Positions 423 through 9,207 of a stretch of DNA of 51,774 nucleotides are shown here, piece after piece. This stretch comes from Bacteroidales bacterium (GTDB taxonomy: Bacteria; Bacteroidota; Bacteroidia; Bacteroidales; UBA932), in assembly GCA_017380095.1 (NCBI GenBank), contig JAFOER010000006.1, forward strand, positions 1 through 51,774, written 5' to 3'. A program made the translations under genes and the position numbers. The notes under the pieces were generated by a model. The model was not told where the DNA came from. It saw nothing but the letters and a program-made list of their open reading frames with translations, and ran no database searches. Numbering within the stretch: the stretch's first letter is position 1; every line of letters starts with the position of its first letter.

Positions 423-1133
423 TCATATTTTGTTCATGCGCTTTTTGAGGGCAGAGAATGCTTTCTGGTACAGTGCGGAGTCATCCATAGTGGAAAGCAT
501 CTCCTTGAAGCGGCTCATTGGGATTGTGAAGGTAAGTTCATTTTCAGGCACAAGAGGGCGTGCAGACGGATCCAGCATCCCAAGGAAGCATCTGCGGCCC
601 CCGTAGCGGTTTTCGTTTACGGCAAAGGTAATTATTGATGCACATCCAGAGCCAAACGGGGTTGTTACAGCATCGGGGGAGTTGTTGTCATAGAATGCCC
701 AGGTGGCCAGTCCAGACAACATGTCGGGAACAGCAAAGAATACCAGTGCCTGTGCTTCATCCCAATTGCCAAGTTTGTCCACCCTCACAAAATTAAGGTA
801 TGGCTTTGGAGATATCTGTATATCCAACCCCTCCACATACTCCTTCACCATCTCTTTGGACTGTTTGTAATGCTCAACCTCTGACACAAATACAGGAACC
901 CTCTCCGGCATTGGCTTGAATGCGGTGTAGAGCCCTCCTCCTCCGCAAATGACATTCTCTGCACAGAGGGTAAGCGGCTCTCCATCACGTACTTTGGAGA
1001 TACTCCCGACAATGCATTTTGGTACCGGTCTCACTTCTGCAGCAGGAGTACCTCTGTAGGCAACTGCAATTGGCAGTGGCGCAGCAGGCCCGAATGCCTC
1101 AGTATATTTTGTGATGAATTCCTGGATTGTCAT
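423..1133 (-). CDS. DUF169 domain-containing protein
   Basis: ORF 423..1247, trimmed to the first ATG (MTIQEFITKYTEAF...). Length (~236 aa) and conserved stretches (CAENVICGGGG, GSGCAS, FTIPMSRF) fit the DUF169 family as I remember it. Confidence 0.7.
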   Translation of the reverse strand: MTIQEFITKYTEAFGPAAPLPIAVAYRGTPAAEVRPVPKCIVGSISKVRDGEPLTLCAENVICGGGGLYTAFKPMPERVPVFVSEVEHYKQSKEMVKEYVEGLDIQISPKPYLNFVRVDKLGNWDEAQALVFFAVPDMLSGLATWAFYDNNSPDAVTTPFGSGCASIITFAVNENRYGGRRCFLGMLDPSARPLVPENELTFTIPMSRFKEMLSTMDDSALYQKAFSALKKRMNKI

Positions 1134-1215
1134 GTTGATAAGTTGTTTTGTTTTCAAAGATAAGAAATTCACCAATATCTTTTGTGGAATTGCTTGTACT
1201 TCCAACAAATATGTA

Positions 1216-1223
1216 TACCTTTG
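1216..1223 (+). promoter_or_regulatory. Candidate -7 promoter box (TACCTTTG) for the small-ORF transcript
   Basis: Exact TAnnTTTG match on the plus strand. The DUF169 start lies upstream and the repeat B leader, 51-aa ORF and terminator lie downstream. Confidence 0.35.
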
Positions 1224-1302
1224 CGTTGGAAAAAATATTTCAATCATAGGAGAAGCAAGCGCTCCTACGCAATTTAAACAGGGTAAGAATTTTAATATAA
1301 TT

Positions 1303-1387: not shown

Positions 1388-1535
1388 AGTCAATATTTTT
1401 TCCAACAAATGCGTAATAGAGCGCCTTAGCAAAGAGTGCAAGGATGCTCCCCGTAAACAATTTTTTATCCGAGGCCACTTCAGAGTGGTTAACGGCAAGA
1501 AGGTTTACGTAAAGCCCCATTACCGTAAAGGGTAA
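1380..1535 (+). CDS. Small, highly basic hypothetical protein of 51 aa (below the ORF-track cutoff)
   Basis: My own translation is MIVVNIFSNKCVIERLSKECKDAPRKQFFIRGHFRVVNGKKVYVKPHYRKG, with 13 K/R against 3 D/E. An in-frame TGA lies at 1329 and a strong plus-strand terminator lies 37 nt after the stop. No homology could be tested. Confidence 0.4.
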   Translation: MIVVNIFSNKCVIERLSKECKDAPRKQFFIRGHFRVVNGKKVYVKPHYRKG

Positions 1536-1571
1536 CAGGGCATAAACTTATAGCATCTTCCACCCGTTTGG

Positions 1572-1602
1572 ACACCCGCAGAGATGTGGGTGTTCTTTTA
1601 TT
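1572..1602 (+). terminator. Rho-independent terminator
   Basis: Stem ACACCCGCA / TGTGGGTGT (9 bp with one G.U) around a GAGA tetraloop, followed by TCTTTTATT. The opposite strand has no U-tract. Confidence 0.7.
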
Positions 1603-1636
1603 GGATGTAAAGTTTGGACATAATTTATAATATGTC

Positions 1637-1644
1637 TACTTTTG
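1637..1644 (+). promoter_or_regulatory. Candidate -7 promoter box (TACTTTTG) for the MazG-like gene
   Basis: Exact TAnnTTTG match, 29 nt upstream of the ATG at 1673. Confidence 0.45.
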
Positions 1645-1672
1645 TTTATCAGATAAGCTAATATATGTGTCT

Positions 1673-2002
1673 ATGGGTGAGATAAAAGAAATAACCGAAA
1701 AGATAAGACAATTTACAGAAGATAGAGATTGGGATCAGTTCCACAATCCAAAAGACTTGGCTATAGCTATTAGCATAGAGGCCAATGAATTATTGGAGTG
1801 CTTCCTTTGGAAATCCCATAATGAGGCCAAACCGGAGAAAGTAAAAGAAGAATTGGCAGATATTTTTAATTATGCATTTCTTTTGGCCGAAAAACTAAAT
1901 CTTGACCCATTGCAAATTGTAGAAGAAAAAATGCGTAAAAATGCTGAAAAATATCCTGTCGAAAAATCCCGTGGAACTGCAAAAAAATATAATGAACTAT
2001 AG
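1673..2002 (+). CDS. MazG-like nucleotide pyrophosphohydrolase (small all-alpha NTP-PPase, DCTPP1/RS21-C6-like)
   Basis: Contains RDWDQFHNPKDLAIAISIEANELLECFLWK and EELADIFNYAFLLAE, the ExxE/ExxD metal-binding helices of the MazG superfamily. The ORF-track start at 1667 is GTG; the first ATG is at 1673. Confidence 0.85.
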   Translation: MGEIKEITEKIRQFTEDRDWDQFHNPKDLAIAISIEANELLECFLWKSHNEAKPEKVKEELADIFNYAFLLAEKLNLDPLQIVEEKMRKNAEKYPVEKSRGTAKKYNEL

Positions 2003-2014
2003 CTGAGGATCTAT

Positions 2015-3748
2015 TTATCTATATGTATCCATAAATCTTTTCAGGTAATTCTGCATTCCCTGATTACATGCATATACATAACATCCTTTTATACCTCTAG
2101 TCATCATAACTTTATATGAGTTGACAATATACTTCTTTAGAGTAGCGTCGTCAACCCCACTTTTCACCTTGGTATCATAGAATTTGCTTCTGTCTATAGT
2201 AATGGTTTGGGATTGCTCATCATAATCAATCTCTTTACCAAATATTACAGCTACATAATTCAGATCATATCCCTGAGTTGTATGGACACATCCTATTTCA
2301 TTCACAGCTCCAGGTCGTAAAATCCACTCCTGATTGCTCATATTCCATACATACTTTTCGCCATCAAGTTCAATATCCTCCAAACCTTTGTCTATAGCTT
2401 GTTCCAACGTTATACACTCTTTGGATTGCCATTCCCATGAATAACCGGCAACTACTCTACACAAAGACATTAAAGAATCTTTATGGCGTATTTCCCTAAT
2501 CATAGCATTCGGATCATCCCAAATTTTAAAATCATAACTGGTGATATCCAATTTTTGGCTCTGATTTACCTGAAAAATATCATCAAGATATTGGGTATAA
2601 GCTACACCTCCCTCACATCTCATTTGAGATTTAAGGTTACTCCTATGCCGTACATCTCTTCTTACTAGTGCACTCTCAAACTGCTCGGCTGTTAGATCAG
2701 ATGACTTTACCGTCTGGTTTTCATCATAAACAAGGACACTGTATCTTGACTTGATTTGGATCATATCAAGTTGCGTTGACGTGCTTTCGTCAATATCAAG
2801 AGTCCTGCACGCTTCGTCAAATGAACCGTAACTGGTAATGCCATGCCTTCTTGCCAATCTATGTGATTCATCTACAAATATCACGTCATACTTACCGTTT
2901 TCCTTAACAACTTCTTGAGGACCAATAACCATAGCAGGATTAAGTCCTGTATCTTTTGATGCTTTGAATACGGCCTTGAATGTTTTCCTTATTGAGGTCA
3001 TAGGAACTACAAAAGCAATTTTAAGACTTCCATGCTTATCAACATACTCACGTATTCTGTTGGAAATGGATATCCTTTCAAGCAATTCCAATTGCTCCTC
3101 CGGACCAAGATCGCCATCGTTATATCTGATATTCATTGCACTCATAAGAGTATATATCATATGGATAACGACGATAGATTTACCTGTACCTGCCTTACCA
3201 CTTAAGATTGAGGTACCAGTCTTGTCACTTTCCAGGGTATCCAATATGTTACTTATAATTTCATGTGATACCGCTTCCTGTTCAGGAGTTAAAGTATTAT
3301 ATGGAGAATACTTGAACAAATTGGAGTTTCTGATTTCAGAAGAGCTGCTTTTTGTAATATTGTGTCTTTTTAATTCATTCCAGATTTCATCAACCTTACT
3401 TTGATAAAGTGCCCGTTGGTAATAATCATGTTTACATGACTGCCCTCCATTTTTATTCTGCAACTTGTACTTCTGGTCTGCCAAAAACATTTGAATCAAT
3501 GTCTGCTCAATATCCAATATTGCAGATTTATTGAATTGATCATCAAAGATAAATCGGATATTGATAAGGGATTGCCTTTCCGGATTATTAAGATGTTGAT
3601 TAAACCTGCCTCCCGCACTGGTAGTTTCACCAACATACAATTGTTTATCATTGTCAATCAAATAAACAACAGGCCAATTCTGACCTTTAGGATGCTGTTT
3701 GAGCAACTGTAAACCGTCATTACTGAATATGTAATTTCTAATTTCCAT
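2015..3748 (-). CDS. GIY-YIG nuclease domain fused to a DUF2075 (Schlafen-like) P-loop ATPase/helicase
   Basis: The N-terminus reads VVYLIDNDKQLYVGETTSAGGRFNQH...DIEQT, which fits the GIY-x9-YIG-x8-R...E pattern. Walker A is GKAGTGKS and Walker B is VIFVDESHRL. VYDENQ, HTTQGYDLNYVAVIFG and MTRGIKGCYVY are typical of DUF2075. The track start at 3763 is TTG; the first ATG is at 3748. Confidence 0.8.
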   Translation of the reverse strand: MEIRNYIFSNDGLQLLKQHPKGQNWPVVYLIDNDKQLYVGETTSAGGRFNQHLNNPERQSLINIRFIFDDQFNKSAILDIEQTLIQMFLADQKYKLQNKNGGQSCKHDYYQRALYQSKVDEIWNELKRHNITKSSSSEIRNSNLFKYSPYNTLTPEQEAVSHEIISNILDTLESDKTGTSILSGKAGTGKSIVVIHMIYTLMSAMNIRYNDGDLGPEEQLELLERISISNRIREYVDKHGSLKIAFVVPMTSIRKTFKAVFKASKDTGLNPAMVIGPQEVVKENGKYDVIFVDESHRLARRHGITSYGSFDEACRTLDIDESTSTQLDMIQIKSRYSVLVYDENQTVKSSDLTAEQFESALVRRDVRHRSNLKSQMRCEGGVAYTQYLDDIFQVNQSQKLDITSYDFKIWDDPNAMIREIRHKDSLMSLCRVVAGYSWEWQSKECITLEQAIDKGLEDIELDGEKYVWNMSNQEWILRPGAVNEIGCVHTTQGYDLNYVAVIFGKEIDYDEQSQTITIDRSKFYDTKVKSGVDDATLKKYIVNSYKVMMTRGIKGCYVYACNQGMQNYLKRFMDTYR

Positions 3749-3777
3749 CTTGGTTATGTTCAATCAATTATACTTCC

Positions 3778-5241
3778 CTACCTTATCTCCATCCTAATCC
3801 TCCTTGCCATAGGCAAGAGATTGTTGGTGCGGTTGCCGAGGTTCTTTACAAATCCGAGGCCGAGGCCGCGGTACACCAGCAGCACGTAGCCCATTGGGGC
3901 GCCGGGGAGCACCAGTGGTTCCTTTGCAAGGAACTTGAGGGCATCCTCCCTCCCCACTTCAACGGCAGAGATTCCGTCGGGAAGACACTCTGATGCCACC
4001 ATATCTGCAACCACTGCCTGCAGGGCAAAGTCTGCGTGGGGCACGTAGTCCTTTCCCTTCTTGTTTGCCACCGCTATTCCCGACAGCACTGTTCTGAGGT
4101 TTTCCTCCACAAATTTTATCTTCTCGTACAGCTCTTTCCTGTATCCCTTTACAAGATCTCCCTGCAGCACCTTCACATAGTTGTCAGGAAGATACCGGCA
4201 ATCCTTATCCATCTGTGGAGCACCTTTTTTGGCGTCTTTGCCTCCTTTTTTCTTCTTGCCCTGCGCTGCACTTCCAAAACTTGAAGGCTCCCAATCGCCC
4301 TCCTTCCGCACAACAGCCATGAACTGCCCCTCACCTTTAATTTTACACGGTACAAACTGCAACCCGCCCTTCTCCGTTAAAATGATACCTGATTCTGAAG
4401 CAGTTGTAAAAGAAGACGACGTCACAATATTACACCCTAGCCCCTCCAGCCAGGCGAGGTTGCCGTCATTTTCGTGTTTGTTGTAGGTGCAGGTGGAGTA
4501 GATGAGGTAACCGCCTGGGGCGAGGGCGGGCCAGATGTCGGCAAGGATGCGCTGCTGGCGCTGGGCGCAGAGCTGCACGTTGGCCGGGCTCCATTCACCA
4601 ATGGCCTCGGGCTCCTTGCGGAAAAGCCCTTCACCGGAACATGGAGCATCTACAACTATAAGGTCAAAGAGCCCTTCAAAGGCTCCAAAATCTGAAGGGT
4701 CATTATTGGTTACCACCACATTGTCGCAACCCCATTTGGCTATATTGTCGGCCAGTATAACAGAACGGCTCTTTATAACTTCATTGGAAACCAGAAGGGA
4801 ATCCTTGCCAAGCAAAGATACCAGATGGGTAGATTTTCCACCCGGTGCGGCACAAAGGTCAAGGGCATTCACCCGCTGGGCAAAAAATGTCCCCTCCTCC
4901 TCACCGCACCTTGCAGCATAATCCTTCTCTATGGCATTCAAGGCCAGTTCCATATACATGCTGCTGGCCTCCTGTACATAATATCCGCCGGCGTGGAACA
5001 AAGGATCCAGGGTAAATACAGGACGCTCCTTAAGATAGTGTCCCAACTCGCTCCATTTCACTTTCCCCTCAACCTCAGCAGGGAAAAATCCCTCCTCCAC
5101 TGAACTCTCATCCACCTTAAAAGGGTTCACCCTCACGGAGGTAATCTCCTCTCCGGAGCCAATAACATCAAACAATCCCTGTGCAACCTCCTCTCCAAGG
5201 GCCGCAACGGCATACTCTCTAAATTCTACAGGCAATTCCAT
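3778..5241 (-). CDS. rRNA (cytosine-C5)-methyltransferase, RsmB/RsmF (NOL1/NOP2/Sun) family
   Basis: SAM motif DLCAAPGGKSTHL and the catalytic Cys motifs DAPCSGEG and YSTCT. The track start at 5250 is TTG; ATG is at 5241. Confidence 0.85.
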   Translation of the reverse strand: MELPVEFREYAVAALGEEVAQGLFDVIGSGEEITSVRVNPFKVDESSVEEGFFPAEVEGKVKWSELGHYLKERPVFTLDPLFHAGGYYVQEASSMYMELALNAIEKDYAARCGEEEGTFFAQRVNALDLCAAPGGKSTHLVSLLGKDSLLVSNEVIKSRSVILADNIAKWGCDNVVVTNNDPSDFGAFEGLFDLIVVDAPCSGEGLFRKEPEAIGEWSPANVQLCAQRQQRILADIWPALAPGGYLIYSTCTYNKHENDGNLAWLEGLGCNIVTSSSFTTASESGIILTEKGGLQFVPCKIKGEGQFMAVVRKEGDWEPSSFGSAAQGKKKKGGKDAKKGAPQMDKDCRYLPDNYVKVLQGDLVKGYRKELYEKIKFVEENLRTVLSGIAVANKKGKDYVPHADFALQAVVADMVASECLPDGISAVEVGREDALKFLAKEPLVLPGAPMGYVLLVYRGLGLGFVKNLGNRTNNLLPMARRIRMEIR

Positions 5242-5253
5242 AATTCCCAAAAA

Positions 5254-8949: not shown

Positions 8950-9207
8950 ATGCCACAAATCAGCAGATTTTATGGGATTATCATTTTTATGAACTTTAAA
9001 GATCACTGTCCCCCTCACTTCCATGCATGGTACAATGAGTACCGTATCACTGTCAATATCGCAGATGGAGAGATTAATGGATCTATGCCGGCACGTGCAA
9101 TTAAACTGATATTGGAGTGGTGGGAAATTAACAAGGATCAACTTACTGAGTATTGGTACAGAGCACAAACAGGCAAGCCTCTTGGAACCATTGCTCCTCT
9201 TAAATAA
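8950..9207 (+). CDS. DUF4160 domain-containing protein
   Basis: MPQISRFYGIIIFMNFKDHCPPHFHAWY is the characteristic N-terminal signature of DUF4160. Length 85 aa. Confidence 0.85.
   Translation: MPQISRFYGIIIFMNFKDHCPPHFHAWYNEYRITVNIADGEINGSMPARAIKLILEWWEINKDQLTEYWYRAQTGKPLGTIAPLK

Follow-up and report, generated by a model that had tools for sequence, protein, structure and literature searches.

The stretch of DNA analysed here, referred to below as the window, comprises 51,774 nucleotides from a Bacteroidales bacterium (assembly GCA_017380095.1, contig JAFOER010000006.1, forward strand). Close to its left end, a low-GC island holds two convergent genes. One encodes a GIY-YIG nuclease fused to a DUF2075/Schlafen-type helicase (the nuclease-helicase) and the other encodes a small MazG-like protein related to the pyrophosphatase DCTPP1. 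The initial annotation of the locus, made from the sequence, had singled out the first gene and had overlooked the adjoining second gene, which is the other half of a conserved two-gene cassette. The features on which the argument is built are as follows.

1544..3777, no strand: low-GC accessory island with both genes, bounded on the left by the point at which the contig of another strain diverges and on the right by the rsmF stop codon
1673..2002, plus strand: gene for a MazG-like (DCTPP1-like) nucleotide pyrophosphohydrolase of 109 aa, assigned from PF12643, PDB matches and linkage
2003..2014, no strand: gap of 12 nt between the convergent stop codons, with no terminator-like hairpin inside
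2015..3748, minus strand: GIY-YIG-DUF2075 nuclease-helicase gene, 577 aa, with ATG at 3748 and stop codon at 2017..2015
3365..3748, minus strand: GIY-YIG nuclease domain, residues 1-128 (Y29, Y38, R48, H52, E81, N98), assigned from PF01541, AlphaFold2 (AF2)/Foldseek and conservation
2018..3301, minus strand: DUF2075/Schlafen group-3-type superfamily 1 (SF1) helicase domain, residues ~150-577, assigned from PF09848, Foldseek and motif conservation

The open reading frame (ORF) of the nuclease-helicase has a longer form with a TTG start (2015..3763, minus strand; 582 aa), and the in-frame ATG at 3748 gives the 577-aa product. The ATG form (MEIR...) begins where the N-termini of the homologues align, and gene callers have called an identical protein on four public contigs. 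The sequencing runs that contain the window sequence come from animal and human gut metagenomes.

The nuclease-helicase fusion

All of the motifs quoted in the initial annotation are present in the translation: VVYLIDNDKQLYVGETTSAGGRFNQH (residues 27-52), LDIEQT (78-83), GKAGTGKS (184-191), VIFVDESHRL (289-298), VYDENQ (340-345), HTTQGYDLNYVAVIFG (489-504) and MTRGIKGCYVY (549-559). The fusion of a GIY-YIG nuclease to a DUF2075/Schlafen-type helicase that was read from them is confirmed by Pfam, by AlphaFold models searched with Foldseek and by conservation in 85 full-length representatives, each drawn from a separate 50%-identity cluster; the conservation values for this protein refer to this set.

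In the window protein the match to PF01541 covers residues 28-62 (E = 7.8e-4) and, at 20.1 bits, lies just under the Pfam cut-off of 22.6. The same family was found in each of 24 aligned diverse relatives at E <= 0.01 (best 2.2e-8), several of them scoring above the cut-off, and these family-wide matches remove the doubt over the sub-threshold score. The AF2 model of residues 1-139 has a predicted local distance difference test (pLDDT) score of 90.1. GIY-YIG domains of UvrC account for eight of the ten best PDB matches to this model (Foldseek probability 0.92-0.99, template-modelling (TM) score 0.58-0.67), although the Foldseek E-values of the UvrC matches are weak (0.04-0.15). The best of them (1yd3, 1yd2, 1yd6 and 1ycz) reach a probability of 0.99 and a TM score of 0.67, with a root-mean-square deviation of 2.8 Å over 88 columns. 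The two sequence elements that define the fold, VVY29 and LY38VG, are nine positions apart in the sequence and fall on two strands of the model, E27-32 and E36-42. Y29, Y38, H52 and N98 are conserved in 100, 100, 100 and 99% of the representatives, respectively. The initial annotation had made its reading depend on profile support for the fold and on conservation of the catalytic Arg and Glu; the profile and fold searches support it, and R48 and E81 are both 100% conserved.

Tyr, Tyr, Arg, Glu and Asn follow one another in the head as they do in the N-terminal GIY-YIG domain of UvrC, at the same spacing, which parallels that of the residues Y19, Y29, Y43 and N88 given by the UvrC PDB entries. 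In UvrC the Arg and Glu are R39 and E76. The head differs from UvrC in being only 16-20% identical, in lacking the UvrC C-terminal domains and the UvrB-binding region, and in being fused to a helicase. By its tyrosines, its Arg, Glu and Asn residues and its modelled fold the head belongs to the GIY-YIG nuclease superfamily, and nuclease activity is predicted. A search with the head against 1.84 billion representatives returned 525 clusters at E <= 1e-3, with the head N-terminal in all of them.

The remainder of the protein matches the SLFN-g3_helicase family PF09848 (formerly DUF2075) over residues 181-561 (E = 1.6e-60; 205.8 bits, cut-off 24); the match spans positions 5-353 of the 354-position profile. 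The residues expected of an active ATPase can all be placed: Walker A (G184-S191), Walker B (D293-E294), Q345 and the arginine fingers R377 and R551. Their conservation is close to complete (K190 99%, D293 98%, E294 100%, Q345 99%, R377 100% and R551 98%). The full-length AlphaFold model (pLDDT 86, predicted TM score 0.81) has Upf1, RecD2, RecD, nsp13, Sen1 and Dda as its best PDB matches in Foldseek (E-values of 1e-9 to 1e-5), and the predicted fold is a two-RecA-domain, SF1B-like one. Neither the protein itself nor a 24-sequence profile found a significant match among PDB sequences, and NCBIfam holds no model for the nuclease-helicase.

The helicase domain shares its Pfam family, its Walker A and B motifs and its arginine fingers with the C-terminal helicase of the group-3 Schlafens (SLFN5/11/13/14). 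In contrast to the eukaryotic Schlafens, the window protein has no Schlafen (AlbA_2) tRNase domain and carries the GIY-YIG head in its place. The bacterial Schlafens described recently concern the nuclease domain and not this helicase (PMC13056530). In the clade closest to the window protein (74% identity), a 462-aa SLFN_AlbA_2 protein is encoded two genes from the cassette (L085/L086, 8772-10160). The two halves of the eukaryotic Schlafens stand there as separate neighbouring genes, which may be a coincidence.

More than 3,600 homologues of the nuclease-helicase were found, many of them annotated with both PF01541 and PF09848, and the label given to homologues by JGI reads 'DUF2075 family protein/predicted GIY-YIG superfamily endonuclease'. 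The GIY-YIG-DUF2075 fusion is not new, being present in these Pfam-based annotations and in one paper (Lutz et al. 2019, PMC6765204). That the protein is an ATP-driven enzyme which would track along nucleic acid and cut it, as had been predicted, is a sound inference from the sequence. The GIY-YIG and ATPase activities predicted for it are both under selection, because the catalytic residues and the ATPase motifs are conserved across the family.

The MazG-like partner and the accessory island

The 109-aa protein encoded at 1673..2002 matches PF12643 with E = 3.7e-21 and 75.6 bits, well above the cut-off of 27. Its closest solved structures are those of DCTPP1/RS21-C6 (2a3q and 6sqw; E = 7e-19, residues 7-109), with which it shares the all-α MazG-like fold family and the EXXE...EXXD metal motif. 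Across 61 partner proteins E36, E39, E60 and D63 are invariant (100%), and E42 is kept in 95%. Unlike DCTPP1, the protein has no eukaryotic extensions at its length of 109 aa and is dedicated to a DUF2075 neighbour. DCTPP1 prefers dCTP-type, possibly modified, substrates.

The linkage between the two genes was assessed in 80 genome loci that encode helicase homologues of 38-52% identity, drawn from Bacteroidota, Bacillota, Pseudomonadota, candidate-phyla-radiation bacteria, Fibrobacter and Methanomassiliicoccales archaea. A protein of about 109 aa adjoins the helicase gene in 60 of the 80 loci by ORF clustering, a count that rises to 68 after tblastn. No MazG-like gene was present in the DNA examined at the other 12, several of which have too little flanking DNA to judge. 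The MazG-like gene usually lies upstream on the same strand; downstream and opposite-strand layouts also occur. A 4-nt overlap between the two genes, present in 24 loci, is suggestive of translational coupling. The convergent arrangement of the window is kept in the 74%-identity clade, and in a relative of 60% identity the MazG-like gene is downstream on the same strand. The pair is also found on plasmid pBMB431 of B. thuringiensis HD-1, where a 'nucleotide pyrophosphohydrolase' stands beside a 'DUF2075 domain-containing protein', and in both of the IMG/VR matches to the nuclease-helicase.

The linkage is reciprocal. Three MazG-like homologues (68-73% identity), chosen only for sitting on long contigs, all lie directly upstream of a DUF2075 gene, and two of the three DUF2075 proteins have no GIY-YIG head. 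The constant unit is therefore the MazG-like gene with the DUF2075 gene, and the nuclease head is exchangeable. In the two cases without GIY-YIG (L095 3839-5701 and L098 3843-5822) the MazG-like protein is 68-69% identical to that of the window. One of these DUF2075 proteins matches the PADLOC model PDC-S41 and, weakly, NERD; the other has a 260-aa head, with a TPR protein upstream and an AAA_11/AAA_12 helicase downstream. Across 59 loci the pairwise identities of the two proteins are correlated (r = 0.58, Mantel test 0 of 999), a correlation to which shared species phylogeny contributes. A search of 149 representatives for a MazG-helicase fusion of the Rosetta-stone kind found none; the long forms carry a Peptidase_S24 domain instead. 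In the searchable literature, which is incomplete, there is no description of a MazG-DUF2075 cassette, of its exchangeable heads or of the S24 variants. By these sequence comparisons the MazG-like gene is a conserved, obligate-looking partner of the nuclease-helicase and encodes a putative pyrophosphatase with an intact motif.

Both genes lie in DNA of foreign composition. The GC content is 0.33-0.40 across 1650-3750 and 0.47-0.57 in both flanks, with a step up at about 3750. Similarity to the DNA of the 74%-identity clade is limited to 1686-3696, and a strain that encodes the identical protein (L084) diverges to the left of 1544. The gene upstream (3778..5250, minus strand) encodes an RsmF/RsmB-type rRNA cytosine-C5 methyltransferase (PF01189, PF17125 and PF13636) whose best matches are labelled Bacteroidales. 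The gene order upstream, FtsK...NUDIX-PRTase-GH20-RsmF, is common to the relatives, and the cassette was present in none of those examined. The slot after rsmF holds an ABC transporter in the relative with 95% RsmF identity, Pmp3 with a C1 peptidase in the 82% relative, and in the 81% relative a 1,106-aa type I HsdR protein with HSDR_N, ResIII and EcoEI_R_C domains (GCA_045592425.1, JAZNUT010000021.1, L105 6458-9778). With a defence gene as an alternative occupant of a variable slot, and defence genes beside the cassette elsewhere, the site after rsmF behaves like a defence hotspot, a comparison into which no background frequency enters.

Homologues of the nuclease-helicase were found on 109 plasmids, 70 of which are Bacillus megaplasmids. 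A phage origin was rejected, as homologues occur in only 4 of 50,697 phage records and on two IMG/VR contigs. The cassette is patchily distributed across bacteria and archaea, has sharp boundaries and sits between genes at unrelated loci. In the window it is flanked by neither inverted repeats nor mobility genes (integrase or transposase). The cassette is accessory and was acquired horizontally.

The genes that flank the cassette elsewhere were counted from 137 ORFs in the 80 loci, without a background frequency, so that the counts are suggestive. The commonest families are Fic (six, four of them also PADLOC SoFic), DUF3427/ResIII/PLD (five), TPR (five) and RhuM (four), followed by other DUF2075 proteins (three) and GmrSD (two), and toxin-antitoxin genes occur among the neighbours at other loci. 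The five DUF3427/ResIII/PLD neighbours correspond to PADLOC mREase_IV, a type IV methyl-directed restriction system (E = 1e-239). At seven loci (L014, L023, L038, L051, L052, L064 and L072) the cassette lies beside an enzyme of about 970 aa that combines PLD, SF2 helicase and DUF3427 domains, and at all seven this enzyme has its own NUDIX gene of about 130 aa alongside (for example L014 4336-7655). The DUF3427 enzyme and its NUDIX protein are a second nuclease-helicase/nucleotide pyrophosphohydrolase pair. An MrcB_N-HNH protein is encoded upstream of the MazG-DUF2075 pair, as its neighbour, on a Paenibacillus plasmid. DUF3427 enzymes bind DNA that contains 5-methylcytosine or 5-hydroxymethylcytosine and restrict phage with the latter base, and their adjacency to DUF2075 NTPases has been recorded (Lutz et al. 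2019). In contrast to these systems, the window has no DUF3427 gene, and no domain that reads modified bases was detected in the nuclease-helicase.

Defence, repair and other readings of the cassette

An N-terminal nuclease followed by a C-terminal DUF2075 helicase of the SF1B type is also the layout of Nhi (S. epidermidis SERP2475), of lactococcal AbiO and of the 'Nhi-like' protein (Millman et al. 2022). Like the GIY-YIG family, Nhi and AbiO are accessory genes on mobile DNA in defence contexts. Nhi and Nhi-like proteins are nuclease-DUF2075 proteins shown by experiment to be defensive (bioRxiv 10.1101/776245; 10.1101/2022.05.11.491447). By analogy with this layout, the window protein may well work in a similar way. 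The differences lie in the head, which is GIY-YIG here and PD-(D/E)XK in Nhi and AbiO, and in the conserved MazG-like partner, none being described for Nhi or AbiO in the cited papers. The PADLOC models for Nhi and AbiO match only residues 92-204 of the 577, that is, the linker and Walker A (E = 6e-9 and 1e-8, respectively). Membership in Nhi/AbiO was rejected on the grounds of a different nuclease fold and of model matches that are only partial. Two further PADLOC entries are related to parts of the protein. Over residues 2-138, the GIY-YIG head gives a match to the PDC-S14 models (E = 7.5e-8). PDC-S41 matches the helicase C-terminus of the window protein and, in a MazG-linked DUF2075 protein whose head is different, the entire N-terminal half (E = 4e-23). 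Each covers one part only, and both are uncharacterised single-gene candidates without a MazG partner.

On balance, and with moderate confidence, we favour by analogy the reading that the cassette is a mobile module, akin to Nhi/AbiO, for defence against phages or plasmids, in which another type of nuclease head is combined with a dedicated pyrophosphatase. This reading is supported by the domain layout of the protein with its active sites intact, by its relatedness to the validated Nhi and Nhi-like systems, and by the linkage of the partner gene, the mobility of the cassette and the defence neighbourhood. The substrate, the polarity of movement and the part played by the pyrophosphatase are those that we infer for such a module. 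The helicase domain would load on foreign DNA, with single-stranded or replicating intermediates as the probable sites, and would translocate using ATP, bringing the GIY-YIG domain to where it could nick or cut the DNA. By analogy with DCTPP1, the MazG-like partner might edit the nucleotide pool by hydrolysing dCTP-type, possibly base-modified, deoxynucleoside triphosphates (dNTPs). Such editing could keep phage-type modified nucleotides out of the host DNA, so that only the DNA of the invader would be attacked; alternatively, it could serve to starve phage replication.

Several observations weigh against a defence role. No PADLOC model matches the nuclease-helicase over its full length, and the searchable literature contains no experiment on phage protection by the GIY-YIG-DUF2075 subfamily. 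The neighbour counts have no background control, and many loci, that of the window included, lie among housekeeping genes. The two genes of the window are convergent and do not form an operon. About a third of the homologues carry an S24 domain which, together with a pyrophosphatase of the house-cleaning type, fits a function in DNA damage or repair. The idea of modified bases draws only on the type IV neighbours and the known preference of DCTPP1.

A more specific form of the defence reading is possible and is put forward tentatively. The cassette could be a two-component immune system directed against invaders with modified-pyrimidine DNA, in which the pyrophosphatase excludes or depletes the modified nucleotide and the heads (GIY-YIG, NERD-like and others) are interchangeable, with RecA*-triggered gating by S24 in a third of the lineages. 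Both components have human homologues, an SLFN11-type helicase and DCTPP1, which could reflect an ancient functional link.

The strongest competitor is a module for DNA-damage repair and nucleotide sanitation. Here the task of the MazG-like protein would be to clear aberrant dNTPs, whether oxidised, deaminated or otherwise non-canonical; the GIY-YIG helicase would locate and incise DNA into which they had been built, or process stalled forks; and SOS (RecA*) control would act through S24 in many lineages. The closest fold to the head is indeed that of a repair nuclease, UvrC, the MazG/DCTPP1 family is known for house-cleaning, as the names of the PDB entries indicate, and several loci are flanked by housekeeping genes. 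A C-terminal Peptidase_S24 domain of the LexA/UmuD type is present in all six homologues of 700-820 aa that were tested (P0245, P0250, P0284, P0291, P0332 and P0354) and in 27 of the 80 loci, where it follows the helicase (for example L044 9690-10079). The window protein has no such domain. As read from the sequence, this tail hints at control by RecA*/single-stranded DNA-triggered self-cleavage in those lineages. However, the gene is strain-variable, compositionally foreign and absent at this locus in close relatives, in one of which a restriction gene takes its place. Its patchiness across the domains of life is unlike that of core repair genes, type IV restriction enzymes, Fic, RhuM and toxin-antitoxin genes are among the genes beside it elsewhere, and the validated relatives that share its layout are defence proteins. 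We consider the repair module unlikely.

Less probable still is a selfish addiction or homing cassette, in which the GIY-YIG helicase would be a toxin or a homing-type nuclease, the MazG-like protein its antidote or regulator, and any protection from phage incidental. GIY-YIG domains are common in free-standing homing endonucleases, and the insertion of a sharply bounded cassette at intergenic sites of unrelated loci would fit such an element. The tight linkage of two genes with overlapping frames resembles the organisation of toxin-antitoxin pairs, and AbiO is toxic at high copy number (PMC13064643). Yet the cassette in the window lacks flanking repeats and has no integrase or transposase beside it, and homing nucleases have no need of a 430-aa helicase. 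Five loci with about 8 kb on each side (L013, L017, L022, L049 and L079) have no MazG-like gene, so that the nuclease-helicase can exist without the supposed antidote, and the conserved catalytic residues of the MazG-like protein argue for an enzyme rather than a mere binding antidote. An RNA-directed enzyme that degrades or remodels transcripts, to which the RNA helicases Upf1, Sen1 and nsp13 among the best structural matches and the Pfam description 'DNA/RNA helicase' might point, is very improbable given that characterised GIY-YIG nucleases are DNA enzymes, that the DNA helicases RecD2, RecD, Dda and Pif1 match about equally well, that the partner is closest to a deoxynucleotide pyrophosphatase and that the neighbours are DNA restriction enzymes.

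The DUF2075 nuclease-helicase fusions Nhi and AbiO are proven single-gene phage defences, and the helicase domain is also found in the human antiviral Schlafens. The present comparison adds that the nuclease head of DUF2075 enzymes is exchangeable, here for GIY-YIG, and that a large cross-domain set of these enzymes travels with a dedicated, putative dNTP pyrophosphatase. If the cassette is defensive, it would represent a mechanism that couples editing of the nucleotide pool to DNA cleavage, and it would offer a simple, testable model for how a target is avoided or chosen. If it is not, it would still be a widespread, uncharacterised DNA-damage module. The cassette measures 2.2 kb, and cultured homologues are available on plasmids of B. 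thuringiensis.

Expression signals and minor features of the locus

Three further features bear on how the two genes might be expressed.

1612..1644, plus strand: candidate promoter of the Bacteroidota type for the MazG-like gene, with TTTG at 1612-1615 and, after a spacer of 21 nt, a perfect TACTTTTG at 1637-1644
3749..3777, minus strand: gap of 29 nt between the stop codon of the rsmF-like gene and the helicase ATG, with no terminator-like site
3765..3772, minus strand: TATAATTG, a -7-like box with one mismatch, not above chance and without a -33 element

The TACTTTTG box, a perfect match to TAnnTTTG, ends 28 nt before the ATG of the MazG-like gene. Perfect boxes of this kind number 60 in the window against 39.7 expected, a figure reached by none of 100 shuffles. 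Together with the Bacteroidales labels of the RsmF matches and the gut origin of the sequencing runs, this excess suggests an uncultured gut Bacteroidales as the probable source. With up to one mismatch allowed there are 736 sites against 679 expected, or about one site per 70 nt. The initial annotation had proposed TATAATTG as a promoter for the nuclease-helicase gene; the box is found at the position claimed (3772..3765, minus strand), but it does not carry significance as boxes with one mismatch are not above chance, and no -33 TTTG lies 19-21 nt upstream of it. The short intergenic distance reported there was reproduced, the TAG of the rsmF-like gene being at 3780..3778. Judged from the sequence, read-through from rsmF into the helicase gene is plausible, because no terminator-like site lies between them.

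A sigma-70 promoter scan of 1400-4000 gave ten sites against 9.6 expected and is uninformative. Metatranscriptome contigs cover parts of both genes at a depth of 3-6, similar to that of the neighbouring genes and possibly including DNA carry-over, and at this low depth none spans the rsmF junction. Transcription of the cassette genes is weakly indicated.

A terminator-like hairpin at 1570-1595 (plus strand; 11 pairs followed by a T-run) falls within the island close to its left edge, ahead of the candidate promoter of the MazG-like gene and near the strain divergence point at 1544. Just to the left of the cassette, a direct repeat of about 100 nt (152-254 and 1286-1387; 82% identical, with its core at 178-210 and 1312-1344) brackets a DUF169 gene (423..1247, minus strand). 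The repeat may be a repeated intergenic element or the trace of a rearrangement at a variable locus. On the other side of rsmF, a pair of small genes with DUF4160 and DUF2442 domains (8950-9207, plus strand, and the adjacent ORF) resembles a toxin-antitoxin pair. The 82% relative has it too, but at the corresponding position, between the NUDIX gene and the ORF on the FtsK side, the 95% and 81% relatives lack it, so that it represents a second small variable insert.

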